Positions 7,468-60,679 of a stretch of 64,000 bases of DNA are shown here, piece after piece; position 1 is the stretch's first letter, and every line of letters starts with the position of its first letter. The notes beneath the pieces are model-generated. The model was not told the DNA's origin and did not search any database. It saw only the letters and a list, made by a program, of their open reading frames with translations. Source of the stretch: an uncultured Gemmatimonadota bacterium (lineage in GTDB: Bacteria; GCA-2686955); the NCBI GenBank assembly GCA_964490075.1, contig CAZBBK010000028.1, positions 1 to 64,000 on the forward strand. Direction: 5' to 3'. Position numbers and translations under genes: made by a program.

Positions 7468-7504
7468 TACGTCCCGAATCAGAATCGCCGCTCCAGGAGC
7501 ACGG

Positions 7505-36618: not shown

Positions 36619-36622
<4 letters not shown>
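35498..36622 (+). CDS. Undecaprenyl-phosphate N-acetylhexosamine-1-phosphate transferase (WecA/TagO-like)
   Basis: RRIH...VPRMGG, GLADD, NAMNLVDGVDGLA, VFMGDAGS, DRRHFHHRL. Confidence 0.92.
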
Positions 36623-38056
<1,434 letters not shown>

Positions 38057-38064
<8 letters not shown>

Positions 38065-39188: not shown

Positions 39189-40298
39189 GTGCGCATCCTC
39201 TACCTCGGCATCGCCGAAAGCGAACATCTCAGGCGCTGGGTCGGGGCCGCGGCGGCGCGCGGTCACGAGGCGCACCTCGCCAGCTTCGAGCCGGCGCCCG
39301 TCGAGGGCGCCACCCTGCACCCGCTGATCCGCCACGCCGGCAAGGCGCGGCGCTACGCCCGCGCCCTGGGCGACATCCGGCGGCTGATCTCGCGCCTCGC
39401 ACCCGATCTGGTGCATGCACATTTTCTGACCGGCTACGGCTACCTGGCGCCCTGGCTCGGCTTCCATCCCTGGGCGCTGACCCTCTGGGGAACCGACATC
39501 CTCCAGAATCCCCAGCGTTCTCGCGCCGATCGATGGCTGTCGCGAGCGGCGCTGCGCTCCGCCGACCTGGTGATCGCCGACTCGCGCGACGCGCTGCGGG
39601 CGGCGCAGCGCCTCGGCGCGCGCCCCGATCGCTCCCTGGCGATTCCCTGGGGGGTCGAGGTCGACCGCTTCCGCCCGCCGGCGACCCACGATGAGCGGCG
39701 CCAGCTGCTGCGCGCCCTGGAGCTTCCCGACTCGGCCCTGGTGGTGCTCTCGGCGCGCAGCCTCACCGAGCCCTTCTACCGGGTCGAGGACGTGGTTCGG
39801 GGGACTCTGCAAGCGATGCAATCCAGCGACGACCTGTTTCTGGTGGTGGCCGGAGGAGGGGAGTTGCTGGAGCCGCTGCGGGCAGCGGTTCGCGACCATC
39901 CCGGCGCCGCCCGAATCCGTTGGTTGGGGCAGGTCGAGCGACGGCGAATGGTGTCGCTCATGGCGCTGGCCGACATCTACGTCAGCGTGCCGACCCACGA
40001 CGCGACCAGCGTCGCGCTGCTCGAGGCGATGGCCTCCGGCTGTGCCCTGGTCGCCTCCGATCTGCCGAGCAACCGCGAGTGGGTGGTTCCGCTCCCGGGC
40101 AGCGACGCGACCGGCACGCTGGTGCCGGCGCGCGCGCCCGAGGCGGTCGCCGCGGCGATCACGGCCTACGCCCAGGACCGCTTCACCCGCGAGCGCGTCG
40201 CCCGCGCCGCGCGCGCGCGGGTGGTGCGCCACGGGGAGTTCGAGCGCTGTCAGGGGCGCGTGGATCGGGCGTTGCGAGGGGTGGTTCAGTCGCTGTAG
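39189..40298 (+). CDS. GT4 family glycosyltransferase
   Basis: SEHLRRW, PDLVHAH, LWGTDI, DATSVALLEAMASGC, SDLPSNREWV. Confidence 0.9.
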   Translation: MRILYLGIAESEHLRRWVGAAAARGHEAHLASFEPAPVEGATLHPLIRHAGKARRYARALGDIRRLISRLAPDLVHAHFLTGYGYLAPWLGFHPWALTLWGTDILQNPQRSRADRWLSRAALRSADLVIADSRDALRAAQRLGARPDRSLAIPWGVEVDRFRPPATHDERRQLLRALELPDSALVVLSARSLTEPFYRVEDVVRGTLQAMQSSDDLFLVVAGGGELLEPLRAAVRDHPGAARIRWLGQVERRRMVSLMALADIYVSVPTHDATSVALLEAMASGCALVASDLPSNREWVVPLPGSDATGTLVPARAPEAVAAAITAYAQDRFTRERVARAARARVVRHGEFERCQGRVDRALRGVVQSL

Positions 40299-42051: not shown

Positions 42052-42230
42052 GGAGCTGAAGATCCCGTGCGTACCGCCGAATAGACTGGTTATGAAGAAT
42101 CTACCTCGCTCTCTTTCCTTTTGTTCACGGCGAGATTAGTCTCTCGCCTAGCAAATCGGCTTCAATGTGGGAGACGGTGCACTTCCGTCCCTGCATCCGC
42201 CTCTCCACTCCACCACCCAGGGCTCTCCCG

Positions 42231-42737
42231 ATGGCGCCCGTCTTCGAAGGCTCCAAGACCTCCAAGTTCGACGCGAAGGGCCGCATGGCCTTTCCGGCGA
42301 GCTTTCGCAACCGCCTCGACGAAGATCACGGCGGGGCGATCGTGGTCACCATCGCCTCCGAGGGTTGCCTGGTCGTTTACAGCCCCGACGAGTGGAAGGC
42401 CAAGCGCGCCGAGCTCGAGGAGATGCTGCGCGCCCAGCCGCGCAATCGGCGGCTGCGCCGCTTCGTGCGCATGCTGGTCGGGGCCAAGGAGACGATCGTG
42501 ATCGATCGCCAGGGCCGCGCACTGATTCCCGACCACCTGCGGTTGCGCGCCGGGCTCGAGAGCGACGCGATGGTGGTCGGCTGCCTCGACAAGGTCGAGA
42601 TCTGGGACGGGAAGCTCTACCGCGATCACATGGAGGACGAGGGCCTGGGCACGCTGCAGGAGCTGGAGGACGAGTTCGACACCGCGCCCGCAGCCTCACC
42701 GCCCGACTCGGACTGGATCACGGGGATCGAGCCGTGA
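42231..42737 (+). CDS. mraZ: Division/cell wall cluster transcriptional repressor MraZ
   Basis: FDAKGRMAFPASFR, IDRQGRALIP, VGCLDKVEIWD; first gene of the dcw cluster. Confidence 0.95.
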   Translation: MAPVFEGSKTSKFDAKGRMAFPASFRNRLDEDHGGAIVVTIASEGCLVVYSPDEWKAKRAELEEMLRAQPRNRRLRRFVRMLVGAKETIVIDRQGRALIPDHLRLRAGLESDAMVVGCLDKVEIWDGKLYRDHMEDEGLGTLQELEDEFDTAPAASPPDSDWITGIEP

Positions 42738-43687
42738 GTCCGCCGCAGCCTTTGACGCACCATCCGGTGCTCTTGACGCAGTGCGTCGAGCTGCTGGGGC
42801 GCGACTCCGGCGGGCGCTTCCTGGACGCCACCCTGGGGCTCGGGGGACACGGCCGCGGGCTGCTGCGGCGGGCCGGCGATGACGCACTGCTGGTCGGTGT
42901 CGACCTCGACGCAGGCGCCCTCGCCCGCGCCCGCGAGACGCTGCGCGACGCTCCGGGGCGTTGCTTTCTGCTGCGCTCCTCCTTCGCCTGGATCGACTCC
43001 GTGCTGGCCGGCGCGCGGGGCAGCTTCGACGCGGTGCTGCTCGACCTGGGCTACTCGAGCGCTCAGCTCGACGATCCGGCGCGCGGCCTGAGCTACTCGC
43101 TCGACGGCCCGCTCGACATGCGTCTCACGCCCTCCATCGGTCCCCCCGCGAGCCACCTGGTCAACTCGCTCGAGGTCGGCGACCTGGCCGACCTGATCCG
43201 CAGCTTCGGCGAGGAGCGGCAGGCGCGCAAGATCGCAGGCGCGATCGACGCGGCGAGGCGCCGCACACCGATCTACACCACCGGGGAGCTCGCGGCGGCG
43301 ATCTCATCGGTGGCACCGACCCGTTTCCGCACCAAGACCCTGGCACGGGTCTTCCAGGCGCTGAGGATTCGGGTCAACCGCGAACTCGAGGCGCTGGAGG
43401 AGGCGCTTCCGGCAGCCGTCCGTCTACTGGCACCAGACGGCCGCCTGGGAGTGATCTCATTCCACAGCCTCGAAGATCGAATCGTCAAGCGCTTCATGGT
43501 GCTCTCGGCCACCGACTGCATCTGTCCTCCGGCGCTGCCCGAATGCCGTTGCGAGCACCGCGCGACTCTGCGCCTGGTGACGCGGCGCGTGGTTCGTGCA
43601 TCGCGGGAGGAGATCGAGCGCAACCCACGAAGCCGATCGGCGCGGCTACGAGTGGCGGCCCGCATCCCGGACCGGAGGGCCGCCTGA
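42734..43687 (+). CDS. rsmH: 16S rRNA m4C1402 methyltransferase RsmH (MraW)
   Basis: HHPVLL, DATLGLGGH, DLGYSSAQLD, GPLDMR, FQALRIRVNREL, ISFHSLEDRIVK, NPRSRSARLR. Confidence 0.97.
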   Translation: MSPPQPLTHHPVLLTQCVELLGRDSGGRFLDATLGLGGHGRGLLRRAGDDALLVGVDLDAGALARARETLRDAPGRCFLLRSSFAWIDSVLAGARGSFDAVLLDLGYSSAQLDDPARGLSYSLDGPLDMRLTPSIGPPASHLVNSLEVGDLADLIRSFGEERQARKIAGAIDAARRRTPIYTTGELAAAISSVAPTRFRTKTLARVFQALRIRVNRELEALEEALPAAVRLLAPDGRLGVISFHSLEDRIVKRFMVLSATDCICPPALPECRCEHRATLRLVTRRVVRASREEIERNPRSRSARLRVAARIPDRRAA

Positions 43688-43773
43688 AAAGGAGAGCAGA
43701 AACGACATGACTGAGCGGCCTCGACGGCGTGACCGGGGAGCGATCGTCCGGGGCCGAGAGACAAGGGGAAACG

Positions 43774-44166
43774 ATGAGAATCGATCGCTTGCGCTTCGGC
43801 GGCAGGTTGCGGCTCCTGGTTCCGGCCCTGACCACGATCGGATTGATAGCGGCCACCAGCTGCGCCCGCAACCTGAGCATGGTGCGGGCGATCGAGCTCG
43901 CCAAGCTGGACGGCGAGCTGGCGGCCCTGGAGAACCGCGAGGAGGAGCTCGGCCTGTCGCTGCGGGCGTTGCAGGCGCCGGAGCGGATCGGGCCTCTGGC
44001 GCGCGACATGGGGCTGACCGACCAATGGAACGCGCGACGGGTCTACGCGGTGGCGCCGGCGCCGGCGCGCGGCGACGGCCTGCTGGCGGCGCTGTGGCAT
44101 ACAACTCAAGGGGTCGTCGACGGTCTGATCGGGACCCGCGAGGCGTATGCACTGGATCAACGATAG
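43774..44166 (+). CDS. ftsL: Cell division protein FtsL-like
   Basis: Lies between rsmH and ftsI; one TM helix, leucine-zipper-like heptads, LQAPERIGPLARDMGL. Confidence 0.7.
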   Translation: MRIDRLRFGGRLRLLVPALTTIGLIAATSCARNLSMVRAIELAKLDGELAALENREEELGLSLRALQAPERIGPLARDMGLTDQWNARRVYAVAPAPARGDGLLAALWHTTQGVVDGLIGTREAYALDQR

Positions 44167-44239
44167 GAGCTGCGACCGGGTTTCTCAGCGCGGAGGCGTG
44201 TAGGAAGCAAGAGCGGATCGGGCCCCGGGAGACCGAGCG

Positions 44240-46171
44240 ATGACAGTCGAGGATCGCGGACGCGTGGCGGCGTGGATCGTGCTCGCCGCCGGGGTGGTCC
44301 TGGTGCTGCGCCTGCTGTTGGTGCAGGTCATCGCCGGCGAGGAGCTGCGCCAGGCGGGCCGCGGGCAGCACGAGCGCAGCACGGCGCTCGAGCCGCGTCG
44401 GGGATCGATCTACGACCGCGATCTGCGGCCCATGGCGCACACCGTCGCCGACTCGTCGCCGGCGCGCGGGAGCAGCGCGGTGCCGCTCTCCAGTCGCGGC
44501 GGCCGGGTCTACGAGGGGCGCCGGGCGGCGGCCCACGTGATCGGCTTCATCGGCAAGGATGGGACCGGGCTAGAGGGGATCGAGCTGGAGCGCGACTCGG
44601 CGCTGACCGGGGTCGCGGGGCGCGCTCTCTTGGGGCGCTTCGCCGACCAGCGCACCATCGAGCTGGAGCGCCGTGATCCGGTCGACGGCGGGCACGTGAT
44701 CACCAGCCTCGACCTGGAGCTGCAGCAGGCCGCCCATCGCGCGCTGCGGAGGGGTGTCACCGAGCAGCGCGCGCAGTCGGGCTCCGCGGTGGTGCTCGAT
44801 CCGATCTCCGGCGAGCTGTTGGCGCTGGCCAACTTCCCCAGCTACGACCCGGGCGCGCCCGGCCGATCGCGGCTCGACGCGCGGCGCAATCGGGCCATCA
44901 CCGACGCCCTGGAGCCCGGGTCGGTGTTCAAGATGGTGGCCTTCGCGGCGGCGATCGAAGAGGGCCTGATCGCGGCAGGGAGCGAGATCGACTGCGGCAA
45001 GGGTCGCATTCGCATCGGCCGGCACACCATCCGCGACGTGCACCGCTACCGCGCGCTGCCTTTCGAGGAGGTGTTGGTTCAGTCGAGCAACGTCGGCACC
45101 ATTCGGGTTGCTGAGCGGGTCGGCTCGGAAATGCTCTATCGCTACGCGAAGGATTTCGGGTTCGGAGAGCCGACCGGGGTCGACCTGCCCGGCGAGGCCC
45201 GAGGGATTCTGAACGGTCCCGGGAGCGCCACCTGGTCGGGGCTCTCGCGCGCCTGCCTGGCGATCGGCCAGGAGGTCTCGGTGACCACCTTGCAGATGGC
45301 CTGCGCGATGGGGGTGTTCGCGGCCGACGGTATCCTGGTCGAGCCGCACCTGGTGCTGCGGATCCTGGGACCGGAGGGCGCGCTGCGGGCGCAGGCGACG
45401 CGGCGCCCGATCCGGCGCGTGGTGAGCGCCGCGACGGCAGACCGCATGACGCGGATCTTGACGCGCGCCGTGGAGCAGGGGACGGGAGGGGCTGCGGCGA
45501 TCGAGGACGTGCCGATCGCCGGCAAGACCGGCACCGCGCAGCGGGCCAATCCGGCGGGCGGCTACGAGGGAGGCGGCTACAACAGCACCTTCGTCGGCTT
45601 CCTCGCCGAGCGCACCCCGCCCCTGGTGATCGCGGTGGCGGTGGTCGATCCCCAAGAGGAGTACTTCGGCGGCGAGGTGGCGGCGCCGATCTTCCGCGAG
45701 ATCGCCGACGTGGTGGTGAGCCGCGACGCGGTGCGCGGGCCCAGGATCGAGTCGGCGTCGGCCCTGGAGCGGATCCGGGTCCCGGCACTGGTCGGACTCA
45801 GGGCGCGCGAGGCGCGGGCCGCGCTGGAGCGCCTGGACCTGCGGGCGCGGATCGAAGGCGCCGATCGCTCGGGGCGCGTCGCACAGCAGGATCCGGCGCC
45901 GGGAACCGCACTCACGCGCGGGGCGTCGGTGCTGCTCCTGGCGCAGCCGACGACGGCGCAAGAGGGCGCGGAAGATGCCGCGGTGGTGGTGCCGCGGCTG
46001 GTCGGCCTGACGATCCGCCAGGCGCACCGGGCGCTGCTCGACGCGGGGCTCGCCATGACGCTGGACGGCCACGGCCACGTGGTGGGTCAGCTGCCGGCGG
46101 CGGGGCGTACGGTGGCGCCGCGCTCGGTGTGCGCGCTGCGCGCCCGGCCGCGTCCGGAAGACGCGTCGTGA
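44240..46171 (+). CDS. ftsI: Class B penicillin-binding protein FtsI with two C-terminal PASTA domains
   Basis: RRGSIYDR, GLEGIE, EPGSVFK (SxxK), QSSNVG (SxN), GKTGTAQ (KTG); PASTA starts VPALVGL and VPRLVGL. Confidence 0.93.
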   Translation: MTVEDRGRVAAWIVLAAGVVLVLRLLLVQVIAGEELRQAGRGQHERSTALEPRRGSIYDRDLRPMAHTVADSSPARGSSAVPLSSRGGRVYEGRRAAAHVIGFIGKDGTGLEGIELERDSALTGVAGRALLGRFADQRTIELERRDPVDGGHVITSLDLELQQAAHRALRRGVTEQRAQSGSAVVLDPISGELLALANFPSYDPGAPGRSRLDARRNRAITDALEPGSVFKMVAFAAAIEEGLIAAGSEIDCGKGRIRIGRHTIRDVHRYRALPFEEVLVQSSNVGTIRVAERVGSEMLYRYAKDFGFGEPTGVDLPGEARGILNGPGSATWSGLSRACLAIGQEVSVTTLQMACAMGVFAADGILVEPHLVLRILGPEGALRAQATRRPIRRVVSAATADRMTRILTRAVEQGTGGAAAIEDVPIAGKTGTAQRANPAGGYEGGGYNSTFVGFLAERTPPLVIAVAVVDPQEEYFGGEVAAPIFREIADVVVSRDAVRGPRIESASALERIRVPALVGLRAREARAALERLDLRARIEGADRSGRVAQQDPAPGTALTRGASVLLLAQPTTAQEGAEDAAVVVPRLVGLTIRQAHRALLDAGLAMTLDGHGHVVGQLPAAGRTVAPRSVCALRARPRPEDAS

Positions 46172-47706
46172 GCGCCGCCGTCGATCCCCGTCCGCTGTGG
46201 CCGCTGCTGGACGCCATTCGCGGTCCCGACGCCAATCTGGTCAGCGAGCCACCGCGCGCCCGGCAGCCGAGCTGGAGCGGAGTGGCGCACGACTCCCGGC
46301 GGGTCGCGCCGGGCGACGTGTTCGTGGCGATCAGCGGGGCGCGTCACGAGGGGCTGACACATGCCCGGGAGGCGCTCGCCGCGGGGGCGGTGGCGCTGGT
46401 GGCGGAAGAGGATCCCGGCCTCGACGCGCCGCTGATCCGGGTGCGCAGCGCGCGCCGGGCGCTGGGCCGGGCGGCGCGCTTCTGGGCGGGAGCGCCGTCC
46501 CGAGCGCTGCGCGTCATCGCCGTCACCGGGACCAACGGCAAGAGCACCGTGGCCTGGATGGTGCGCGACCTGCTGCGGCACATGGGGCTGCGCGTGGGGC
46601 TGCTGGGCACTCTGCTCTACGACACCGGCAAGCGCCGCAGGGCCGCACCCCTGACAACACCCGATGCCCTGGAGCTGCAGAGCTTGCTGGCCGAGATGGT
46701 GGAGGCCGGCTGTGACGCGGCGGTCCTGGAGGCCTCGTCGCACGGGCTCGATCTGCACCGGCTGGAAGGCTGCGACGTGCACGTCGGGGTCTATACCAAC
46801 CTGAGTCGCGATCACCTGGACTACCACGGCTCCATGGAGCGCTACCGCGAGGTGAAGCTGCGACTGATCGACCAGGTGCGTCATTCCACCGGTCCCTGGG
46901 ACCGGGCGGTGGTCTACGATCGCGGCGTCGCCGCCTGGAGAACAATCCCCGAGCGTGCCGATCGGCTGCCCCTGGTGGTCTACGACTCGAGCGCCGGGGA
47001 ATGCTGCGAAGGGGCCTACTCGGTCTGCGCTCGGGGCGCCGACCTGCGGGGATCGACCTTCGCGCTGCACGGGCCCGATCTGCCGGCGGCCGGGCTCGAG
47101 GGCCGTCTGCCGCTTCCGGGCCGCCACAATCTGGCCAATGCGCTGGCCGCCCTGAGCGCCTGCGTCGCCTGCGGACTCGATCCCGCGGCGTTGGTCGCGG
47201 GCCTGGCCGAGTTCGGCGGCGTGCCGGGCCGGCTGGAGCCGGTGGCCGGGGGCGCCGGCACGCCGAGGGTGCTGGTCGACTACGCCCACACCCCGGACGC
47301 CGTCGCCCGCGTGTTGCGCGAGCTGCGGCCCTTGGTGCCGGGTCGGCTGATCGCGGTATTCGGCTGCGGGGGAGACCGCGACCGCGGCAAGCGGCCGGAG
47401 ATGGGGCGCGCGGCGACCACCATCGCCGACCTCGCCATTCTCACCAACGACAATCCGCGCAGCGAGGATCCGCGGCGCATTGCAGACGATGTGCTGGCGG
47501 GGGTGGAGGGAAGTTGCGAGCTGATCCTGGACCGTCGCGAGGCGATCGCCCGGGCGATCGACGCGGCGAGCCGGGAGGACGTCGTCGTGCTGCTCGGCAA
47601 GGGGCACGAGGACTACCAGATCGTGGGCAGCGAGCGGCGCGCCTTCGACGACCGCCAGGTCGCCGCGGCGCTGCTCGAGGCCCGCGCGGGGGAATCGCAA
47701 TCATGA
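46168..47706 (+). CDS. murE: UDP-MurNAc-tripeptide synthetase MurE (meso-DAP type)
   Basis: HDSRRV, VTGTNGKST, LTTPD, EASSHGL, TNLSRDHLDYH, VDYAHTPDA, FGCGGDRDRGKRPEMG, DNPR, GKGHEDYQ. Confidence 0.97.
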   Translation: MSAAVDPRPLWPLLDAIRGPDANLVSEPPRARQPSWSGVAHDSRRVAPGDVFVAISGARHEGLTHAREALAAGAVALVAEEDPGLDAPLIRVRSARRALGRAARFWAGAPSRALRVIAVTGTNGKSTVAWMVRDLLRHMGLRVGLLGTLLYDTGKRRRAAPLTTPDALELQSLLAEMVEAGCDAAVLEASSHGLDLHRLEGCDVHVGVYTNLSRDHLDYHGSMERYREVKLRLIDQVRHSTGPWDRAVVYDRGVAAWRTIPERADRLPLVVYDSSAGECCEGAYSVCARGADLRGSTFALHGPDLPAAGLEGRLPLPGRHNLANALAALSACVACGLDPAALVAGLAEFGGVPGRLEPVAGGAGTPRVLVDYAHTPDAVARVLRELRPLVPGRLIAVFGCGGDRDRGKRPEMGRAATTIADLAILTNDNPRSEDPRRIADDVLAGVEGSCELILDRREAIARAIDAASREDVVVLLGKGHEDYQIVGSERRAFDDRQVAAALLEARAGESQS

Positions 47707-48071
47707 TCGAGATCTTGATCGTTGACGACAGCCCGGAGATCCGCGCCTTCATGGGTGAATGCGTGGAGATGATGGGCATGCGGGCCACCGTGGCGGCGAG
47801 CGCCGGCGAGGCCCTGAGGCGGCTGGCGAGCCAGCCGGTCGACCTGGTCATCTCCGACCTGGCGATGCCCGGCATCGACGGCTGGGGACTGATCGACCGC
47901 CTGCGCGGCGTGCATCCCGGTGTGCCGGTGGTGCTGATGAGCGGCTGGGATGTCGATCGCCGGCTGGCCCGCGCGCGCGGGGCCGCCGGTTGGCTCTCCA
48001 AGCCCTTTGGATACCGCGCGATGAAAGAGGCGATCCGTCCCTGGGTCGCCCTGGAGGAAGAGCTGGTATGA
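47703..48071 (+). CDS. Stand-alone response regulator receiver domain protein (122 aa)
   Basis: ILIVDDS (D8, D9), DLVISDLAMPGIDG (phosphoacceptor D52), LMSG (S80), LSKPF (K100); ATGA overlap with the murE stop. Confidence 0.92.
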   Translation: MIEILIVDDSPEIRAFMGECVEMMGMRATVAASAGEALRRLASQPVDLVISDLAMPGIDGWGLIDRLRGVHPGVPVVLMSGWDVDRRLARARGAAGWLSKPFGYRAMKEAIRPWVALEEELV

Positions 48072-48277
48072 CCGCCGAACGATTCTACTGCGACCGCAAT
48101 GGACTGGTGGACCGGAGCGCCTGCGGGCTCTGCTTCGCGGCTGACGCGCAGCGCGCCGCCACCTACGTCACGCGAGCGATCTGCGCCTCGGCCCACGGCC
48201 GCTGGCTCGATGAAGGGCTCGTGACGCAACCGGCCCGAGTGCCGATCCTGATCCCGGTCGAGAGCCGGGTGGCCTGA
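48068..48277 (+). CDS. Small Cys-rich hypothetical protein (69 aa), putative metal-binding
   Basis: GGAGGA at 48053-48058; ATGA overlap with the receiver-gene stop; MTAERFYCDRNGLVDRSACGLCF...AICASAH; fills the gap to murF. Confidence 0.7.
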   Translation: MTAERFYCDRNGLVDRSACGLCFAADAQRAATYVTRAICASAHGRWLDEGLVTQPARVPILIPVESRVA

Positions 48278-48290
48278 GGAGGTCGCGATC

Positions 48291-49685
48291 GTGGCCTGGA
48301 CCGTCGCCGAGATCGCCGCCATCGCCAGGGGCGTGGTGCTGCGCGGGGACGCGTCCGCGACCCTCACCGGTGTCAGCATCGACAGCCGGCGCGTGACCCC
48401 CGGTGATCTCTTCGTGGCTTTGCCGGGGGAACAGAGCGACGGCCACGACCACGTCGACGCGGCTCTGGCCGCCGGCGCGGTCGCGGCGTGCGTGCGTCAT
48501 TCCTGGACGTCTCCGCACGCCGTGGAGGGGACGCTGCTCGGTGTCTCCGACCCGCTGGCGGCGCTGCAGAGCTGGGCCGAGGCCCACCTGCTGAGCCTGA
48601 CAGCGCGCACCGTCGGTGTGACCGGCAGCAACGGCAAGACCACCACCAAGGACCTGGCGCGCGTCGCTCTCGGGGGCGGGGCGCGGATCGGTGCCACCCT
48701 CGGCAACTACAACAACCAGATCGGCCTGCCGCTCTCGATCCTGGCCATGGGGCCCGAGGTGCGGATCGCGGTGCTGGAGATGGGGATGTCGACTCCCGGC
48801 GAGATCGCGCGCCTGGTCGAGATCGCCCCGCCGGAGGTGGCGGTGATCACCAACGTGGGGCCGGCCCACCTGGAGAGCCTGGGAAGCATCGAGGCGATCG
48901 CCCGCGCCAAGCTGGAGATCCTGAACCGCGCTCCGGCGCTCGCGCTGCTGCCCTGTGGCGCGCCGCGGCTGCTGGAACCGGCCCGCGAGCGGCTCGCCGC
49001 GGGACAGAGCCTGCGCACCTTCGGCACCCAGCCCGAGGCCGACTACCGGGCCACCGACATCGAGGCGACGGGCGCCGGGGGCACGCGCTTCCTGGTCAAC
49101 GGCAAGGGGCCGGTCGAGCTGCCGATCTTCGGCGTCCACAACGTGTTGAACGCTCTGGCGGCGATCGCCGTCGCGGAGCGCATGGGGCGCGCCTGGGACG
49201 AGATCCGCGCCGCCCTGGCGGCGGCCTCGCCGGCGCCGATGCGCTCGGAGTGGAGGCGGATCGGCGCCCTGCGTCTGATCAACGACGCCTACAACGCCAA
49301 CCCCGCCTCGATGGTCGCGGCGATCAAGTCCCTGGCCGCCACGCCGGCCCAGGGGCGGCGAGTGCTGGTGCTCGGCGACATGTTGGAGCTCGGGCCGCGC
49401 GCCGCTGAGCACCATCGCAGCGTCGGCCTGGCCGCCGATTCCGCCGGCATCGATCTGCTGCTGACGGTGGGAGAGCGGGCGGCCGAGATCAGCGCCGCGG
49501 CGAGCCGTCTGAGCGGCGCCGGACAGGCCCATCATTTCGCAGCAATAGGCGCGGCCGCCGAGTTTCTGGCCGGAGCCGGCGCGGCCGGCGACCTGGTGCT
49601 GATCAAGGCCTCGCGCGGCATGGCCCTGGAGGGGCTGATCGACGAGCTGGCGCTGATTCTGGGCGCCCGCGAGGGGGACGACTGA
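48291..49685 (+). CDS. murF: UDP-MurNAc-pentapeptide synthetase MurF
   Basis: IDSRRV, DGHDH, VTGSNGKTTTKD, NYNNQIGLP, LEMGM, NDAYNANP, LGDMLELG, IKASRGM. Confidence 0.97.
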   Translation: MAWTVAEIAAIARGVVLRGDASATLTGVSIDSRRVTPGDLFVALPGEQSDGHDHVDAALAAGAVAACVRHSWTSPHAVEGTLLGVSDPLAALQSWAEAHLLSLTARTVGVTGSNGKTTTKDLARVALGGGARIGATLGNYNNQIGLPLSILAMGPEVRIAVLEMGMSTPGEIARLVEIAPPEVAVITNVGPAHLESLGSIEAIARAKLEILNRAPALALLPCGAPRLLEPARERLAAGQSLRTFGTQPEADYRATDIEATGAGGTRFLVNGKGPVELPIFGVHNVLNALAAIAVAERMGRAWDEIRAALAAASPAPMRSEWRRIGALRLINDAYNANPASMVAAIKSLAATPAQGRRVLVLGDMLELGPRAAEHHRSVGLAADSAGIDLLLTVGERAAEISAAASRLSGAGQAHHFAAIGAAAEFLAGAGAAGDLVLIKASRGMALEGLIDELALILGAREGDD

Positions 49686-50779
49686 TGCTCTACCACCTGC
49701 TGGCACCGCTGGCGCCGCATTTCGCGTTGTTCAACGTCTTTCGCTATATCACCTTCCGCGCCACCTACGCGGCCGTCACCGCGCTGGTGGTCAGTCTGCT
49801 GCTGGGGCCCTGGGTGATCGAGCGCCTGCGCCGCTCGAGCTATCGCGAGTCGATCCGCAGCGAGGGGCCGGAGTCGCACCGCAGCAAGGCCGGGACGCCG
49901 ACCATGGGCGGCGTGCTGATCCTGATGGCGGTGCTCGGCTCGACCCTGCTCTGGGCCGACCTCACCAATCGCTCGGTGCTGCTGGTGCTGCTGGTCACAT
50001 CCGTGCTCGGCGGCGTCGGCTTCCTCGACGACCATCTCAAGAACGTGCGCCGTCTGCCGGAGGGACTGATCGCTCGCTACAAGCTGGTGGCGCAGGTCGC
50101 CCTGGGGCTGATCGTCGGCGCCGCGCTCTACTTCTGGCCCGAGAACCCCGCGCTGCACGACGCGACCACCGTCCCCTTCTTCAAGGTCCAGACCCTGACC
50201 CTGCACCTCTCCCTTCTCTATATCCCCTTCGTCACCTTCGTGATCACCGGCTCGTCCAACGCCGTCAACCTCACCGACGGACTGGACGGCCTGGCGATCG
50301 GCCTGGTGGCGATCGCCGCCACCGGCCTCGGGATCTTCGCCTACCTCACTGGTCACCAGGACTTCGCCGACTACCTCGGCCTGCATCACATCCCCAGCGC
50401 CGGCGAGCTGACGGTGTTCTGTTCGGCGCTGGCGGGGGCGTCGCTCGGCTTTCTCTACTACAACTGCCATCCCGCCGACGTCTTCATGGGCGACACCGGC
50501 TCCTTGCCGATCGGTGGGGCGCTGGGGGCGATGGCGGTGCTGCTCAAGCGGGAGCTGGTCTGGGCGGTGATCGGCGGTGTGTTCTTCGTCGAGACCCTGA
50601 GCGTGATCATCCAGGTCTGGTACTTCCGCCGCACAGGGGGCAAGCGTTTCTTTCGGATGGCGCCGATCCACCATCACTTCGAACAGCTCGGCTGGGCCGA
50701 GAATCGCGTCGTGGTGCGCTTCTGGCTGGCCGGCGTGTTGCTGCTCCTGGTGGCTCTCTCGACCCTCAAGGTGCAATGA
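49685..50779 (+). CDS. mraY: Phospho-MurNAc-pentapeptide transferase MraY
   Basis: YITFR, KAGTPTMGG, GFLDD, SNAVNLTDGLDGL, VFMGDTGSL, MAPIHHHFE. Confidence 0.98.
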   Translation: MLYHLLAPLAPHFALFNVFRYITFRATYAAVTALVVSLLLGPWVIERLRRSSYRESIRSEGPESHRSKAGTPTMGGVLILMAVLGSTLLWADLTNRSVLLVLLVTSVLGGVGFLDDHLKNVRRLPEGLIARYKLVAQVALGLIVGAALYFWPENPALHDATTVPFFKVQTLTLHLSLLYIPFVTFVITGSSNAVNLTDGLDGLAIGLVAIAATGLGIFAYLTGHQDFADYLGLHHIPSAGELTVFCSALAGASLGFLYYNCHPADVFMGDTGSLPIGGALGAMAVLLKRELVWAVIGGVFFVETLSVIIQVWYFRRTGGKRFFRMAPIHHHFEQLGWAENRVVVRFWLAGVLLLLVALSTLKVQ

Positions 50780-52086
50780 CCGACACTTTCCCCCCCAGGT
50801 TCGATGGCCGGCGGGTCTGCATCGTCGGCGCGGCCCGCAGCGGGCTGGCGGCGGCGCGCGCGGTGGCGGCGTGCGGGGGCGTGCCTTTCGTGACCGACTC
50901 GGCGCGCGGCGGGGAGCGGGAGCTCACGCGCTCCGGCTTCGAGTTCGAGCTCGGCGGGCATACGGCGGCGGCGCTGCGCGGCGTCGGTCTGGTGGTGGTC
51001 AGCCCCGGCGTGCCCTGGTCGGCCCCGCTGCTGGAGCGGGCCCGGGCGCGCGCCATCGAGGTGATCGCCGAGGTCGAGCTGGCCTGGCGCCTGACCCGCG
51101 CCACACTGGTCGGCATCACCGGATCGAACGGCAAGTCGACCACCACCGCGCTGGCCGCCCATCTGCTGCGGGCTCTGGGCCGCGACGCCGAGGCCTGCGG
51201 CAACATCGGCCGCCCGCTCTGCGATCTGGCACTGGACGCACCGGCCGAGCGCATTCTGGTGGCGGAGCTCTCGAGCTTTCAGCTCGAAGGCGTGGTCGAC
51301 TTCCGGCCACGGGTCTCGGCGCTGCTGAACCTGAGCCCCGATCACCTGGAGCGCCACGGCGGCTTCACCGGCTACGTCGAGGCCAAGACCGCCATCTTCC
51401 GGCGCGCTCGGCTGGGCGACCACGTGGTGCTCTCGGCGGTCGATCCGGCCACCCGGGCGCTGGCCCGGAGAGTTCCACCGGGGGTGCGGATTCGCCTGGT
51501 CGGGGCCGAGTTCCCACCCGATCCGGCGCTCGACGCCCTGGCCCTGCCGGGGACCCACAACCGTGCCAACGCCGCGGCGGCGCTGGCCATCGTGCGCTGC
51601 CTGGTTCCGGCCGCCGCGACTCCGACGCTCGAGGCCGCCTGCGCCTCTTTCCGCGCCCTGCCGCACCGCCAGGAGACGCTGGGCGAGCGCCAGCGGGTGC
51701 TCTACGTCAACGACTCCAAGGCGACCAATGTCGACTCGACCTGCATGGCGCTACGCACTTACGCCAAGGGCGTGATCTGGATCGCTGGCGGCCGCGACAA
51801 GGGATCCGACCTGCGGCCTCTGGTGGAAGCGGCGCGCGGTCGGGTGCTGCGCGCACTGCTGATCGGTGAGGCGGCGCGGCGCCTGGCTGGGGCCCTGGAG
51901 GAAGCGATCGAGGTCGAGCAAGTCGGCACGCTCGACGCCGCGATCACCCGCGCCCGCGCCATCGCCCGGCCGGGAAATGTGGTGCTGCTTTCGCCCGCCT
52001 GCTCATCCTACGACCAGTTCGCCGACTTCGAGCAACGCGGCGAGGCCATGCGCACGTTGATCGGCGCCGCGGGAGAGGGCTCATGA
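50776..52086 (+). CDS. murD: UDP-MurNAc-L-Ala:D-Glu ligase MurD
   Basis: GAARSG, VSPGVP, ITGSNGKSTTT, ELSSFQL, LNLSPDHLERH, NDSKATN, LSPACSSYDQF. Confidence 0.96.
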   Translation: MTDTFPPRFDGRRVCIVGAARSGLAAARAVAACGGVPFVTDSARGGERELTRSGFEFELGGHTAAALRGVGLVVVSPGVPWSAPLLERARARAIEVIAEVELAWRLTRATLVGITGSNGKSTTTALAAHLLRALGRDAEACGNIGRPLCDLALDAPAERILVAELSSFQLEGVVDFRPRVSALLNLSPDHLERHGGFTGYVEAKTAIFRRARLGDHVVLSAVDPATRALARRVPPGVRIRLVGAEFPPDPALDALALPGTHNRANAAAALAIVRCLVPAAATPTLEAACASFRALPHRQETLGERQRVLYVNDSKATNVDSTCMALRTYAKGVIWIAGGRDKGSDLRPLVEAARGRVLRALLIGEAARRLAGALEEAIEVEQVGTLDAAITRARAIARPGNVVLLSPACSSYDQFADFEQRGEAMRTLIGAAGEGS

Positions 52087-53255
52087 GGGGATTGCACTCG
52101 TGGCTCGCCCGCACCCGGGATCAGCTGAGCGACCCGCTGGTGGGACGCATCTTCTTCGTCAGCGTGGTGCTCCTGCTGCTCGGTACGGGCTTCGTCTTCA
52201 GTGCCTCCTCCGCCCGCGCGGTGCGCGACTATGGGGACTCCTACTTCTTCGTGCGCGAGCATTTCTGGCGCGTGATCGCGGCGCTCGGGTTCTGCCTCGC
52301 GATCTCGGCGATCGACTATCACCATCTGAAGCGCGCCGGCAAGGCGGCGTGCGCATTGTCGCTGGTGGTCCTGGTGGCGATGTTGATGCTGCCCACCTCG
52401 GTGGTGCCGGAGATCAACGGCGCGCGGCGTTGGCTCGACCTGCAGATCGTGCCGCGCCTGCAGCCCTCGGAGTTCGCGCGGTTGGCGATTCTGCTCTACC
52501 TGGCGGAGTTCCTGTCGCGCAAGGGCGATTCGGTGCGGGACTTCTGGAACGGCGTGCTGCCGGCGATGGTGGCCGGAACGATGGTCGCCGCGGTGGTGCT
52601 GGCGGGACGCGATCTGGGCACCGCGATCACCCTCGGCGCGCTGGTCTGGAGCATGATCTGGCTCGGCGGCGCGCGCCACCGGCACATGCTGGCGGCCGGC
52701 GCGGTCGGCCTGGCGGCGGCGGCCTGCGCGATCTATCTCTCGCCCTACCGGCGTCTGCGCTGGACCGCCCATATCACGGGCGATGCCGACCCCCTGGGTG
52801 CCGGCTACCACGCCCACCAGTCGCTGATCGGCCTGGCCGGAGGGGGCTGGTTCGGCGAGGGGATCGGTCAGTCGTGGCAGAAGCATTTTTTCCTGCCGGA
52901 GGCCCACACCGATTTCGTGTTCGCGATCGTCGGCGAGGAGATCGGTTTCTTCGGCGCGACCGGTGTGCTGGTCCTCTACGGCTGGCTGGCCTGGCTCTGC
53001 CTGCAGGCCGCACGCCGCGCAAACGACGATTTCGGTCGCTATCTGGCGCTGGGCGCCGGGGTGTCGCTGGTTCTCAATACCCTGCTTCACGCCGCGGTGG
53101 TCTCGGCTCTGATCCCGCCCACCGGAGTGCCGATGCCGCTGCTCTCCTACGGTGGCTCCTCGCTGATCGCGACGATGATCTCGCTCGGCATGGTGATGAG
53201 TGTCGCGGCGCGGGGCAAGGTCGTTCCGGTCCCCGGCAAAGCGAGGAGCGGGTGA
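52083..53255 (+). CDS. ftsW: Peptidoglycan polymerase FtsW (SEDS)
   Basis: FSASS, NGARRW, LQPSEF, DLGT, FLPEAHTDFVFAIVGEEIG, PPTGVPMPLLSYGGSS. Confidence 0.96.
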   Translation: MRGLHSWLARTRDQLSDPLVGRIFFVSVVLLLLGTGFVFSASSARAVRDYGDSYFFVREHFWRVIAALGFCLAISAIDYHHLKRAGKAACALSLVVLVAMLMLPTSVVPEINGARRWLDLQIVPRLQPSEFARLAILLYLAEFLSRKGDSVRDFWNGVLPAMVAGTMVAAVVLAGRDLGTAITLGALVWSMIWLGGARHRHMLAAGAVGLAAAACAIYLSPYRRLRWTAHITGDADPLGAGYHAHQSLIGLAGGGWFGEGIGQSWQKHFFLPEAHTDFVFAIVGEEIGFFGATGVLVLYGWLAWLCLQAARRANDDFGRYLALGAGVSLVLNTLLHAAVVSALIPPTGVPMPLLSYGGSSLIATMISLGMVMSVAARGKVVPVPGKARSG

Positions 53256-54418
53256 TGCGGGTGCTCTTCGCCGGCGGCGGTACCGGAGGACATGTCTACC
53301 CGGCCCTGGCGGTCGCCGAGTTCATGGCCGGCGCCGAGATGCTCTTCGTCGGCTCGCAGCGCGGAATCGAGGAGGGGATCGTGCGCGGTGCCGGTCTGGA
53401 GTATCGGGGTCTGCCGATCGAGGGGCTGCACCGGCGCCTGACGGCCGAAAATCTGTTGTTTCCGGTGCGCCTGGCGACGGCCCTGGCGGCGGCCTGGGCC
53501 CTGGTGCGTGCTTTTCGGCCGCAGGTGGTGCTGGGGACCGGCGGATTCGCCAGCGCTCCGCCGGTGCTGGCGGCGCAGCTGCGCGGGGTGCCGACGCTGC
53601 TCCAGGAACAGAATGCCTATCCCGGAGTGACCACGCGGCTGCTGGCGCGGCGCGCATGCGAGGTGCACATCGCCTTCCAGGAGGCGGCGGCACGGTTGCC
53701 GCGCAGCGCCGAAGCACGCACCCGGCTGACCGGCAATCCGGTGCGCGGCTCGCTGGTCGAGCGCCTTGGCGCTGCCGGCTCCCGCGCGCAGGGAGCGGCG
53801 GAGCGGCGCGCCGCGCGGGCACGAATCGAGGGGCTCGATGCCGACCTGCCGGTGGTTCTGGTGTTCGGCGGCAGCCAGGGCTCGCGCCTGCTCAATACCG
53901 CGCTGGCGGCCTTCCTGGAGGCGGGTCCGGATGCCGTGACGATCCCGTTCCAGATCCTCTGGGCCACCGGGCGCAAGCTCCACCAGGAGGTACTGGAGCG
54001 TCAGCTTCCGGCCGAGCCGGCGCTGCCCGTGCAAGTGCGTCCCTACCTGGAGGAGATCTCGGTGGCCTATGCCGCGGCCGACCTGGTGGTTTGTCGGGCA
54101 GGGGCGATCACCTGCGCGGAGCTGGCCCTGGTCGGCCGGCCGGCGCTGCTGGTGCCGCTGGCGTCGGCGGCCGGCGACCACCAGGGCCACAACGCAGCCG
54201 CCCTCGCCGGGGCCGGGGCGGCACGGATGCTGGAAGAGCGCCGGCTGCGCGAGGGCGCCGCCGGAGGCCGCGAGCTGGGGCGGATGATCGGCGAGCTGAT
54301 GGCCGACCGTGCCGCGTTGGAGAGGATGGCGGGCGCCGCACGCGCCCTGGCACGCCCCGATGCCGCACGCACCATCTCGGAGCGGCTGCGGGCGCTGGCC
54401 GGAGGAGCGCGATCATGA
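53255..54418 (+). CDS. murG: Lipid II synthase MurG
   Basis: AGGGTGGHVYP, GTGGFAS, EQNAYPG, TGNPVR, FGGSQGS, CRAGA, HQGHNA. Confidence 0.97.
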   Translation: MRVLFAGGGTGGHVYPALAVAEFMAGAEMLFVGSQRGIEEGIVRGAGLEYRGLPIEGLHRRLTAENLLFPVRLATALAAAWALVRAFRPQVVLGTGGFASAPPVLAAQLRGVPTLLQEQNAYPGVTTRLLARRACEVHIAFQEAAARLPRSAEARTRLTGNPVRGSLVERLGAAGSRAQGAAERRAARARIEGLDADLPVVLVFGGSQGSRLLNTALAAFLEAGPDAVTIPFQILWATGRKLHQEVLERQLPAEPALPVQVRPYLEEISVAYAAADLVVCRAGAITCAELALVGRPALLVPLASAAGDHQGHNAAALAGAGAARMLEERRLREGAAGGRELGRMIGELMADRAALERMAGAARALARPDAARTISERLRALAGGARS

Positions 54419-56847
54419 CCAGGGCAAGGCCGCGGACCTCGCCGCGCTCGCAGCGCACCCGCGCCGAGCACTCGCTCTTCGGCAGCGTGCGCCGCATCCA
54501 CCTGGTGGGGATCGGCGGCACCGGCATGTGCGGCATCGCCGAAGTGTTGCTGAACCTCGGCTTCACCGTGACCGGCACCGACCTCGGCTCCACCGAGGTG
54601 ACGAATCGTCTCGAGGCGCTGGGTGCTCGCATCGCCCACGACCACCACAGTCCCCTGGTGCTCGACGCCGACGTTGTGGTGGTCTCGACGGCGATTGGGC
54701 CGGACAACCCGGAGCTGCGGGCCGCGCGCGAGCGCGCGCTGCCGGTGATTCGCCGTGCCGAGATGCTGGCGGAGCTGATGCGTATGAAGCGCGGCATCGC
54801 CGTCGGTGGTTCGCACGGCAAGACCACCGTCAGCTCCATGGCCGGCGGGGTGCTGATCGAAGGTGGGCTCGATCCGACCGTGGTGGTGGGGGGGCGGGTC
54901 AAGCGCCTGGGGTCGAACGCGCGGGTCGGCGCCGGCGACACCATGGTGGTGGAGGCCGACGAGTCGGACGGTACTTTTCTGCACCTACAGCCGACGATCG
55001 CGATCGTCACCAACATCGACTGGGAGCACGTCGACTACTACGCCGACCTCGACCAGACCCTGGACGCCTTCGTCCACTTCGCCAACGGTGTTCCCTTCTA
55101 CGGCGCCGTGGTCCTTTGCCTGGACGATCCCAACGCGCGGCTGGCGATTCCACGCATCACGCGCCGCATCCTGACCTACGGGCTGGAGCCGGGCGCCGAC
55201 CTGGTGGCGACCAAGGTGCGCGCCATCGAGGGCGGCTCGCGTTTCGAGCTGGTGTGGCAGGGCGACACCCTGGGAAGCTGCGATCTGGCGGTTCCCGGAA
55301 GACACAATATCGCCAACGCGCTGGCCGCCGCCACCGTGGGGCTCGAGCTGGGCCTCGACGCCGCCGACATCTTTCGCGGGCTGGAGAGCTTCTCCGGAGT
55401 GGCGCGCCGCCTGGAGCGTCGCGGAGAGAGCCGAGGGGTGGTGGTCTACGACGACTATGCGCACCACCCGCGCGAAATCGAAGCGACGCTGCGGGCCCTT
55501 CGCGAGCAGTGGCCCGGACGCGTGGTGGCGGTGTTTCAGCCGCACCGTTACAGCCGGGCGGAAGCCCTGGCGGACGACTTCGGTCGCTCCTTCTACGGCG
55601 CCGACAGCCTGATCGTGGTGCCGATCTACCCCGCCGGCGAAGAGCCGCGAGAGGGGATCGACGCCTCGATGTTGGCCGGCAAGTGTCGCGCTTATGGCCA
55701 CAAAGACGTGCACCTGGCCGACGATCTCGAGGCCGCCGCGGCGACCTTGGCGGCCAGCGCTGCGGCCGGCGACCTGGTGATCACCTTGGGGGCCGGATCG
55801 GTGTGGCGGGTCGGGTCGACGCTCCTGGAGCTGCTCGCGCGCCAGCCGGCGGCGAGCGTCGCTTCCGGCGGCGAGGGAAGCGCCGCGGCACCCGCGGTGC
55901 ATGCCCCTTCGGCCGACGCACGCGCCCTGGTGGCCGATCTCGAGGGAGAGGCGCTGCCAGAGCATTCTCTGGAACGGTGCACCTCGCTGCGCCTCGGGGG
56001 ACCCGCCGAAGTGCTCTTCGTGCCGGCATCCGCCGCTGCCGCCGCCGAGGCGATCAGCCGCGCACTGGCCGCCGAGCTGCCGGTGACGACGATCGGAGGC
56101 GGCACCAATCTGCTGATCGCCGAGCGCGGCGTGCGCGGCCTGGTTCTGTCGCTGGGTGGGGCATTCCGCGGCATCTCGATCGAAAGCGAGGCCCGGGTGC
56201 TATGTGGCGCCGCGGCGCCGCTGGCGAAGGTCATGCGCGACACTCTGCGCGCCGGACTGGTGGGCATGGAGCCACTGGCCGGAGTACCCGGTTCGCTGGG
56301 AGGGGCGCTGGTCATGAACGCCGGAACGCGCGACGGAGAGATCGGCGATCTGGTGGTGGCGGTGCGCGGTGTCGATGCCGCCGGTCGCCTGGTCGAGGTG
56401 GCCGGAAATGATCTCGCCTTCGGCTATCGTCGCTCCGCCGTGGCCGAGCTCGGTCTCACCCTGCTCGAAGTGGAGCTGGCACTGGAGGAGGGAGATTCGG
56501 CGGCGGCACTGGAGCGAGCCCGCGAGCTGCGCGATTATCGCAACGCCACCCAGCCGCACAAAGTGCGCTCCGCCGGCTCGGTGTTCAAGAATCCGCCCGG
56601 CGACGCCGCCGGCAGGTTGATCGATTCCTGTGGACTCAAGAGCTCGACCCTCGGCGGGGCGCGGGTATCGCCGGTCCATGCCAACTTCCTGGTGGCCGAG
56701 ACGGGCTGCTCCTCGCGACACATGGCGCGCCTGATCGAACGCTGCCGGCGCGCGGTCTGGAAGCAGCACGGCATCGCCTTGGAGCTGGAGATCCGACCCC
56801 TGGGCTTCGCCGCCGGCGAGCTGCCCCCGACCTGGAGCGGGCGATGA
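54415..56847 (+). CDS. murC-murB: Bifunctional MurC-MurB fusion (810 aa)
   Basis: MurC motifs GIGGTGMCG, GSHGKTT, EADESDG, DDYAHHP, FQPHRYSR, TLGAG; Ala-rich linker; MurB motifs TSLRLGGPA, GGGTNLL, PGSLGGALVMNAG, FGYRRS, SAGSVFKNP, HANF, LELE; one frame, no stop. Confidence 0.93.
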   Translation: MTRARPRTSPRSQRTRAEHSLFGSVRRIHLVGIGGTGMCGIAEVLLNLGFTVTGTDLGSTEVTNRLEALGARIAHDHHSPLVLDADVVVVSTAIGPDNPELRAARERALPVIRRAEMLAELMRMKRGIAVGGSHGKTTVSSMAGGVLIEGGLDPTVVVGGRVKRLGSNARVGAGDTMVVEADESDGTFLHLQPTIAIVTNIDWEHVDYYADLDQTLDAFVHFANGVPFYGAVVLCLDDPNARLAIPRITRRILTYGLEPGADLVATKVRAIEGGSRFELVWQGDTLGSCDLAVPGRHNIANALAAATVGLELGLDAADIFRGLESFSGVARRLERRGESRGVVVYDDYAHHPREIEATLRALREQWPGRVVAVFQPHRYSRAEALADDFGRSFYGADSLIVVPIYPAGEEPREGIDASMLAGKCRAYGHKDVHLADDLEAAAATLAASAAAGDLVITLGAGSVWRVGSTLLELLARQPAASVASGGEGSAAAPAVHAPSADARALVADLEGEALPEHSLERCTSLRLGGPAEVLFVPASAAAAAEAISRALAAELPVTTIGGGTNLLIAERGVRGLVLSLGGAFRGISIESEARVLCGAAAPLAKVMRDTLRAGLVGMEPLAGVPGSLGGALVMNAGTRDGEIGDLVVAVRGVDAAGRLVEVAGNDLAFGYRRSAVAELGLTLLEVELALEEGDSAAALERARELRDYRNATQPHKVRSAGSVFKNPPGDAAGRLIDSCGLKSSTLGGARVSPVHANFLVAETGCSSRHMARLIERCRRAVWKQHGIALELEIRPLGFAAGELPPTWSGR

Positions 56848-59044: not shown

Positions 59045-59110
59045 ACCCATGCATCCCCGCACCGGGAGCAGGCGCTTCGGGGCGGATGCATGCCATGCGA
59101 GGAAAGCACC

Positions 59111-60445: not shown

Positions 60446-60679
60446 ATGCCCGGAACGCGGACCAGCCGACCCCGACGCCTGCTCTTCGCTCTGCTCGCGA
60501 TGCTCTCGAGCCTCGCGGCACTCGAAGGCGGGGCGCGGCTGGTCGCGCGGCGGATCCCCATCGCCGGTCTCGACGCCGATCCCTTCTTCGGCTTCTTCGG
60601 CTTCCAGACCTTCTTCGAGGCGCTGCCCTCCGCCGCTGACAGCCTGCGCACTCGCCCGGCCATGTCGACGATTCGATGA
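60446..60679 (+). CDS. Membrane-anchor peptide, probably the N-terminal fragment of the downstream SGNH gene (frameshift)
   Basis: RRLLFALLAMLSSLAALEGGARL...DPFFGF...LRTRP resembles the usual N-terminus of membrane-anchored SGNH proteins; ends with an ATGA overlap. Confidence 0.6.
   Translation: MPGTRTSRPRRLLFALLAMLSSLAALEGGARLVARRIPIAGLDADPFFGFFGFQTFFEALPSAADSLRTRPAMSTIR

Follow-up and report, generated by a model that had tools for sequence, protein, structure and literature searches.

The murE and murF genes of an uncultured Gemmatimonadota bacterium are separated by two small genes, one encoding a stand-alone CheY-like receiver domain and the other a protein of 69 residues with four cysteines, and both lie inside the dcw (division and cell wall) cluster, which the open reading frame (ORF) list and Pfam scans show to be complete, with all genes on the same strand, from mraZ to ftsZ. 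The stretch of DNA analysed here, the window, comprises the first 64,000 nucleotides of contig CAZBBK010000028.1 (C28) of assembly GCA_964490075.1, a genome (G000) of 5.7 Mb that is 95% complete. An earlier note on this DNA, made from the sequence alone, had suggested that the insert might be an undescribed module coupling a phosphorelay to peptidoglycan synthesis or division. We find that the small protein, termed the Cys4 mini-protein below, represents an undescribed and rare family under selection and that the receiver is a single-domain response regulator, orphan and specific to the phylum, whose acceptor site is intact. To the fuller reading, in which the insert is a conserved gene pair expressed within the dcw operon with the mini-protein as its ancestral member and the receiver as a gating add-on, we give an even chance.

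Conservation and authenticity of the insert

The junctions described in the earlier note are present in the sequence: the receiver gene overlaps the end of murE through an ATGA, its own stop codon overlaps the start of the small ORF through a second ATGA and the small ORF, with its four cysteines, ends in a stop codon that enters the ribosome-binding site of murF (TGAGGAGG; Table 1). We infer that the ATGA overlaps couple translation. Both insert genes fit without gaps and in the same orientation into the mraZ-to-ftsZ order, as they do in the relatives, and a scan of 46129–49685 for promoter-like and terminator-like sites, in itself weak evidence, found none.

Five species genomes of the phylum were compared, G000–G003 from one family and G004 from a second family of the same class. 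A profile search with inspection of the loci placed exactly one copy of the small ORF in each of the five, always between murE and murF, and a receiver at the same locus in four, the exception being G001. In G002 and G003 the order is murE, a 127-residue receiver, a 69-residue small ORF and murF; both ATGA overlaps of G003 are identical to those of the window, the coordinates in G002 imply an equal 4-nt overlap between receiver and small ORF, and the fused stop codon and Shine–Dalgarno-like motif is kept at the DNA level in both genomes as TAGGGAGG. The 125-residue receiver of G004 starts 26 nt inside murE, preceded by GGAGGAGG, and is followed by a 68-residue small ORF behind GGAGG and then by murF. 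In G001, murE is joined by an ATGA junction to a 74-residue small ORF, murF starts from the very next base and there is no receiver. Identities to the window proteins are 62, 60 and 41% for the receiver orthologues and 54, 51, 42 and 26% for the small-protein orthologues. This survey of neighbourhoods, which the earlier note had called for, argues against a random insertion.

Ratios of nonsynonymous to synonymous substitution (dN/dS; Nei–Gojobori counts) for the pairs G003/G002 and G000/G003 are 0.16 and 0.26, respectively, for the receiver, 0.14 and 0.25 for residues 1–46 of the small ORF and 0.73 and 0.76 for its residues 47–69. Values well below 1 identify both the receiver and the small ORF as protein-coding genes under purifying selection, and the difference between core and tail indicates that the small protein has an N-terminal domain under constraint, followed by a tail that drifts.

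All three junctions are crossed by contigs from four runs (X1–X4) of one marine-metagenome study, for example by record 2 of X1 (47595–48650), records 19 and 20 of X3 and records 10 and 12 of X2, with X1 possibly the source of the assembly; the assembly check thus turned out against a chimera. The insert has a GC content of 0.68–0.71 versus 0.70–0.78 in the flanks, with no break in composition, and the only flanking repeats are imperfect GC-rich matches, with nothing resembling terminal repeats, in agreement with the absence of mobile-element traces noted previously. An artefact, be it a chimeric assembly, a spacer left open by chance in GC-rich DNA or a recent mobile insertion, could be argued from the frequency of spurious long ORFs in high-GC DNA, of which the overlapping frames of the window are an example, and from read support that comes from a single study including the possible source run. 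Against it stand the equal gene order in four other separately deposited genomes (G001 without the receiver), the crossing of each junction by contigs of four runs, dN/dS values of 0.14–0.26, the conservation of the family across two phyla and the lack of flanking repeats and of a composition break. We therefore reject the insert as a chimera, a spurious ORF or a recent mobile insertion, any of which would be extremely improbable.

Some contigs of X1–X4 match only the anchors 47595–47634 and 48621–48652, which correspond to the GKGHE region of murE and the P-loop region of murF, and carry 401–404 other letters between them, not 986–989. The short gap has the length of the remaining 72 nt of murE plus 330 nt of murF, and these contigs probably come from other GC-rich organisms with the usual direct murE–murF junction.

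The receiver

The 122-residue product matches the Pfam family Response_reg (PF00072) over residues 4–112 and profile positions 1–111 of 111 (E = 5.5e-23; 81.7 bits, cut-off 30.2), its other Pfam match being a sub-threshold one to FleQ over the same residues (17.3 bits against a cut-off of 22). The acceptor-site residues named in the earlier note (D8, D9, D52, S80 and K100) were all confirmed by counting; W97 occupies the aromatic switch position, and D8, D9, D52 and K100 are invariant across the four orthologues. No output domain follows, so the receiver must work through protein–protein contact.

A profile (A2) of the four dcw receiver sequences scores these copies at 201–223 bits and the next best sequence in G001–G004 at about 87 bits. 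No orthologue was found in G001, where the best A2 match anywhere in a genome that is 83% complete reached 85 bits. Outside the phylum, in 396 genomes of a 401-genome sample drawn around G000, the best A2 match scored 114.8 bits, and neither murE nor murF lies within 1.5 kb of any of the six best outside receiver loci; the receiver orthogroup is confined to the phylum among the genomes searched. Receiver matches in G000 itself number at least 43 at E ≤ 1e-8, and the closest paralogue of the window receiver is 34–39% identical to it (61 bits).

None of the NCBIfam equivalogs was reached (NtrC, 64.4 bits versus 558.6; CpdR, NF046022, 52.3 versus 180), and no DivK-specific model appears among the best 25 of 96 NCBIfam matches of the receiver. 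Among solved structures, the closest sequences belong to the receiver domains of FleR, NtrC and DctD, followed by CheY2 and Spo0F (E = 1e-14 to 1e-11). PADLOC matches were weak (E = 0.0013 and 0.0055), and a homologue search of a protein database, which returned one 99%-identical and one 43%-identical protein and missed the known orthologues, was little informative. The earlier note saw no histidine kinase in the window, and a scan restricted to HisKA (PF00512) bears this out: G000 has at least 51 matches, of which none lies on the contig of the window, so that a remote kinase is available.

The Cys4 mini-protein family

The cysteines of the window mini-protein are arranged as C8-x10-C19-x2-C22-x16-C39 in an N-terminal domain of about 46 residues, in which G12 and R36 are also invariant; a variable tail follows and ends in SRVA. 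The protein has no Pfam match at E ≤ 0.01 and no NCBIfam match. Among 1.84 billion cluster representatives searched with a profile, 17 matched at E ≤ 0.001, 13 of them being proteins of 49–140 residues. The other four were set aside: P0004, P0009 and P0012 are long proteins (526–3910 residues) with 7–13 short matched stretches, probably repetitive false matches, and P0013 carries a repeated motif but lacks the Cys pattern. Two further rows, P0003 and P0015, were excluded as identical to L002 and L026, and P0016 (140 residues) was dropped from alignments A8 and A10. When 5.8 billion proteins were searched through a word index with a profile of 22 sequences, 30 proteins of 46–72 residues were returned, none of which has a Pfam domain; every name given to them by a source is 'hypothetical protein', and the labels on the matches are Candidatus Raymondbacteria, Fibrobacteres and Fibrobacterota. 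PADLOC yielded no match to the mini-protein and the protein atlas no usable one.

The family thus comprises mini-proteins of 46–81 residues (median 63 over 48 sequences), in which the domain starts a few residues from the N-terminus and the tail is short and mostly acidic. Residues C8, G12, C19, C22, R36 and C39 are invariant in an alignment of 22 sequences and F23 is almost so; 47 of 48 sequences have the pattern C-x9-11-C-x2-C-x14-18-C, the exception being a 46-residue form that is short at its N-terminus. This conservation makes plausible the metal or redox input that the earlier note had suggested, and the four cysteines most likely bind a metal, either zinc or an Fe–S cluster.

AlphaFold2 models from 17 and then from 48 sequences predict a β-hairpin (residues 5–8 and 12–15) followed by short helices (16–25, 27–33 and 36–43), with a core pLDDT of about 85–89 and a disordered tail. 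No match of this fold to a solved structure was found: a Foldseek search against the PDB gave nothing at E ≤ 0.001 (best match, E = 5.8, to a sirtuin zinc module), and the best VIA Z scores, obtained with these moderate-confidence models, were 2.8 and 2.7. For Cys4 folds of the zinc-ribbon or treble-clef type, nothing nearer than this sirtuin match emerged from the moderate-confidence models. In a sequence-profile search of the PDB the lowest E was 0.09. Of the Pfam families, DUF6485 alone is matched by more than two members (PF20095; three of 48, best E = 0.0015), at scores under its 24-bit cut-off, and its model, applied genome-wide, matches other loci in G032 and G401 and not the dcw-linked genes.

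The small, mostly helical predicted domain with four invariant cysteines, including a C-x2-C pair, recalls the WhiB-like (Wbl) proteins of Actinobacteria, small four-Cys [4Fe–4S] proteins with a genetic link to septation. By analogy, the mini-protein could be a redox or Fe–S sensor whose four cysteines hold a cluster and which contacts the transcription machinery and tunes dcw expression, with the receiver as a second input. Unlike Wbl proteins, however, the family occurs in other phyla, the window protein has no Pfam match and none of the 48 members matches Whib at E ≤ 1; its spacing, C-x10-C-x2-C-x16-C, differs from the Wbl pattern C-Xn-C-X2-C-X5-C, and the Z scores given above do not amount to a fold match. 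We consider a WhiB-like role quite unlikely.

An SRVA, TRVA or KVA C-terminal end is kept in the family-f1 type despite the drift of the tail (dN/dS of 0.73–0.76). This end may be a protein signal or may instead reflect the overlapping ribosome-binding region of murF. Ala-rich C-termini of the ssrA type are ClpX signals, and a proteolysis switch can be envisaged in which the receiver serves as a CpdR-like ClpXP adaptor and the mini-protein, with its R-V-A end as the degron, as a substrate or co-adaptor through which the amount of a Mur ligase or divisome protein is set. CpdR indeed ranks with the better NCBIfam models matched by the receiver, but its score falls far under the cut-off; the conserved 3' end overlaps the murF ribosome-binding region, so that its conservation is possibly at the RNA level, and G004 and most Fibrobacterota members have other C-terminal ends. 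A switch of this kind has, in our view, little probability.

Members outside the phylum

In the 401-genome sample, 11 genomes have a mini-protein match, five of which are the phylum's own. Among 296 Fibrobacterota genomes, seven have a match at E ≤ 0.001 and 289 have none. In all seven loci (tblastn) ftsZ lies directly upstream on the same strand, its stop codon 16–115 nt from the start of the mini-protein, a start that in three loci is possibly 6 nt further upstream. In one uncultured Fibrobacterota genome (locus L026), a 64-residue member follows ftsQ–ftsA–ftsZ, separated from ftsZ by 80 nt. No receiver was found among the ORFs of L026, which was read with 4-kb flanks; the flanks of the other six loci span 1.5 kb. 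In a tree of the first 50 residues of 48 sequences, in which most forks are unresolved, the sequence from G004 joins the Fibrobacterota type and not the family-f1 type. A scan of JGI metagenomes with alignment A6 found no relative.

The occurrence of the mini-protein without a receiver in G001 and in Fibrobacterota leads us to take the mini-protein as ancestral and the receiver as an add-on. The two-gene module of the earlier note consequently survives in part: receiver and small ORF are conserved as a pair in four of the five phylum genomes, but the pair is divisible, since G001 and the Fibrobacterota locus L026 keep the mini-protein alone. With G004 as the outgroup family, a single loss of the receiver in G001 is the simplest history, although five genomes are insufficient to settle it.

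The domain also occurs in fused form. In G032, G200 and G351 it forms the C-terminus of a 208–209-residue protein without a Pfam match, and its homology to the mini-protein is supported by hhalign (probability 95.1%, E = 3.4e-8, 46 columns). The neighbourhood of a fused copy was read widely at one locus (L036, G032:C14:83000–97000, with the 208-residue gene at 6988–7611), where the order is a GAF–SpoIIE phosphatase, a 113-residue protein of unknown function, the 208-residue protein, CheW, CheR, two stand-alone receivers (129 and 123 residues), FapA and CheB. The 208-residue protein has several cysteines in its N-terminal part too, and upstream are two FeFe-hydrogenase-like genes, of which one encodes a PAS domain.

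Weak and uncounted matches at L022 (G326) and L023 (G173) share a C-x9-C-x2-C-x16-C pattern with 'TRANC' around positions 1500–1790; at L023 the motif ends a 95-residue ORF beside a 483-residue ORF, with no dcw genes nearby. These loci may hold distant members of the mini-protein superfamily. Two further candidates were judged spurious, L021 (G151), an ORF antisense to a 492-residue gene, and L024, from a scan with alignment A7, where the match, at a flagellin locus, covers residues 1–25 only and runs antisense to another gene.

Proposed mode of action

Our preferred explanation takes the mini-protein to be an ancestral, dcw-linked and probably metal-binding component that would act on the division or peptidoglycan-precursor machinery through protein–protein contact, with FtsZ and the Mur ligases as candidate targets. 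In the phylum of the window an orphan receiver would have been placed directly upstream and coupled translationally to it; an unlinked histidine kinase would phosphorylate D52, and the phosphorylated receiver would most likely bind the mini-protein or the target of the mini-protein. Wall synthesis or division would thereby be tied to an external or cell-cycle signal, giving the phosphorelay coupling that the earlier note had envisaged. The parts of this proposal differ in strength. A role of the mini-protein in division or wall synthesis has slightly better than an even chance. That the receiver acts through the mini-protein is put forward tentatively, with the balance tilted against it. The complete statement, namely that the mini-protein is an unrecognized divisome or precursor regulator in the dcw clusters of at least two phyla, gated here by Asp-phosphorylation of a dedicated CheY-like partner, is possible and at present doubtful.

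Several points weigh against this proposal. The mini-protein persists without a receiver in G001, where the locus was read directly, and in L026; the receiver is thus dispensable for the basic role of the mini-protein and may act on something else. The two dcw positions, between murE and murF and after ftsZ, differ, so that neighbourhood implies no single partner. The conservation counts are not independent, as four of the five phylum genomes belong to one family. Co-transcription of the insert genes with murE and murF is deduced from gene spacing, and metal binding from the invariant cysteines. The AlphaFold2 models are of moderate confidence (mean pLDDT of 72.5 and 73.9; pTM of 0.49 and 0.53). 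Finally, the association of a fused copy with a CheW/CheR cluster lends weak support, since chemotaxis clusters always hold CheY-like genes.

The same observations could be explained by two independent passengers, the mini-protein working alone on the divisome or the Mur pathway and the receiver serving as a phosphate sink or relay for an unrelated pathway and borrowing dcw expression. In G001 the mini-protein is accompanied by neither a receiver at the locus nor an orthologue-level match elsewhere, L026 lacks a receiver among its ORFs, and the wealth of receiver and HisKA matches in G000 makes sinks and relays plausible. The arrangement of the genes speaks for a closer bond: G000 and G003 share the ATGA overlap between the receiver gene and that of the mini-protein, with a 4-nt overlap implied in G002, the order of receiver then mini-protein holds in two families of the phylum, and the receiver orthogroup is distinct, well conserved and found only there. 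On this evidence we regard independent passengers as unlikely.

The dcw cluster of the window

The cluster has the order mraZ, rsmH, a possible ftsL, ftsI, murE, receiver, small ORF, murF, mraY, murD, ftsW, murG, murC–murB, ftsQ, ftsA and ftsZ (Table 1).

Table 1. Features of the dcw cluster and of the murE–murF insert in the window.
Feature	Position	Strand	Basis and remarks
dcw cluster	42165–60427	+	Pfam scans
mraZ	42165–42737	+	Pfam
Possible ftsL	Short ORF between rsmH and ftsI	+	Position only; no Pfam match
ftsI, transpeptidase domain and PASTA domains	44240–46171	+	Pfam
murE, UDP-MurNAc-tripeptide synthetase	46129–47706	+	Three Pfam Mur ligase domains; TIGR01085, 469.7 bits, cut-off 257.3
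ATGA, murE stop/receiver start	47703–47706	+	Sequence; murE TGA shares bases with the ATG at 47703, caatcATGAtcg
Stand-alone CheY-like receiver, 122 residues	47703–48071	+	Translation; PF00072; stop codon 48069–48071
ATGA, receiver stop/small-ORF start	48068–48071	+	Sequence; junction reads ggtATGAccg, ATG at 48068
Mini-protein gene, 69 residues, four Cys	48068–48277	+	Translation
TGAGGAGG, small-ORF stop fused to Shine–Dalgarno-like GGAGG of murF	48275–48282	+	Sequence; TGA 48275–48277 merges with GGAGG, murF GTG 8 bases on at 48291
murF, D-Ala-D-Ala-adding enzyme, GTG start	48291–49685	+	Pfam Mur ligase domains; TIGR01143, 411.8 bits, cut-off 288.6
murG	53252–54418	+	Pfam
murC and murB, single open frame	54400–56847	+	Pfam
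ftsZ	59090–60427	+	Pfam

Several further features of the cluster and its surroundings were noted. The murE gene, called from the GTG at 46129, encodes some 45 residues before the first profile-matched position and shares 43 nt with the end of ftsI; its true start may lie further downstream. The murC part (three Mur ligase domains) and the murB part (FAD_binding_4 and MurB_C) share a frame of about 815 residues without an internal stop, which suggests a MurC–MurB fusion protein. The FtsI-type transpeptidase carries its PASTA domains at the C-terminus, a feature more familiar in Gram-positive PBP2x-type proteins and in Ser/Thr kinases. The ORF directly after ftsZ (60676–63285, + strand; 869 residues) combines HEAT and Armadillo repeats with a weak match to GDSL lipases and is an unusual neighbour for ftsZ. 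Upstream of the cluster, the + strand between 35498 and 40298 holds a second MraY-like Glycos_transf_4 gene (35498–36622), a FemAB/GNAT-like gene (38057–39184) and a group-1 glycosyltransferase (39189–40298), which together may form a cell-envelope glycan cluster.

Relation to known systems and implications

The dcw cluster is among the most conserved gene arrays of bacteria, and additions to it are rare and are usually lineage-specific division or wall factors. The window receiver resembles the single-domain regulators CheY, Spo0F, DivK and CpdR in its Pfam receiver fold, complete set of acceptor residues and lack of an output domain, and DivK and CpdR link phosphorelays to the cell cycle; unlike these, it is encoded in a dcw operon between murE and murF, and it reaches no equivalog. 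The mini-protein, for its part, is comparable to SepF, ZapA, MciZ and SidA, short modulators of FtsZ encoded beside ftsZ or in dcw clusters, although none of these families appeared in its Pfam scans and, to our knowledge, a Cys4 domain is a feature of none of them. ReoM/IreB and CwlM, which act on MurA, share with the window pair the idea of a small phosphorylatable protein that sets the flux through a Mur enzyme; they depend on Ser/Thr kinases, however, and are not known to be encoded between Mur ligase genes or to be homologous. Where signalling reaches the Mur pathway or FtsZ in the systems known to us, it does so by way of transcription factors whose genes lie elsewhere, or else Ser/Thr kinases make the connection.

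In the parts of the literature consulted, neither a receiver nor a Cys4 mini-protein was found described as part of a dcw cluster, which agrees with the view of the earlier note that the insert was undescribed. The nearest systems in these sources are NtrYX (PMC7240162) and CenKR (PMC9275681), both of the two-component type and connected with the cell envelope and with division.

The carriers of the insert are uncultured, so that tests of these proposals must be heterologous. The analysis adds a new mini-protein family that is tied to the dcw cluster in two phyla and at two positions and that is paired in one of them with a phospho-receiver. If the proposed roles are correct, the family would be a novel class of small proteins regulating division or the wall, and through the pair two-component signalling would reach the Mur pathway or FtsZ directly. 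The receiver would then be the first of the two-component type to be built into a dcw operon, allowing a histidine kinase to time wall synthesis or septation directly.

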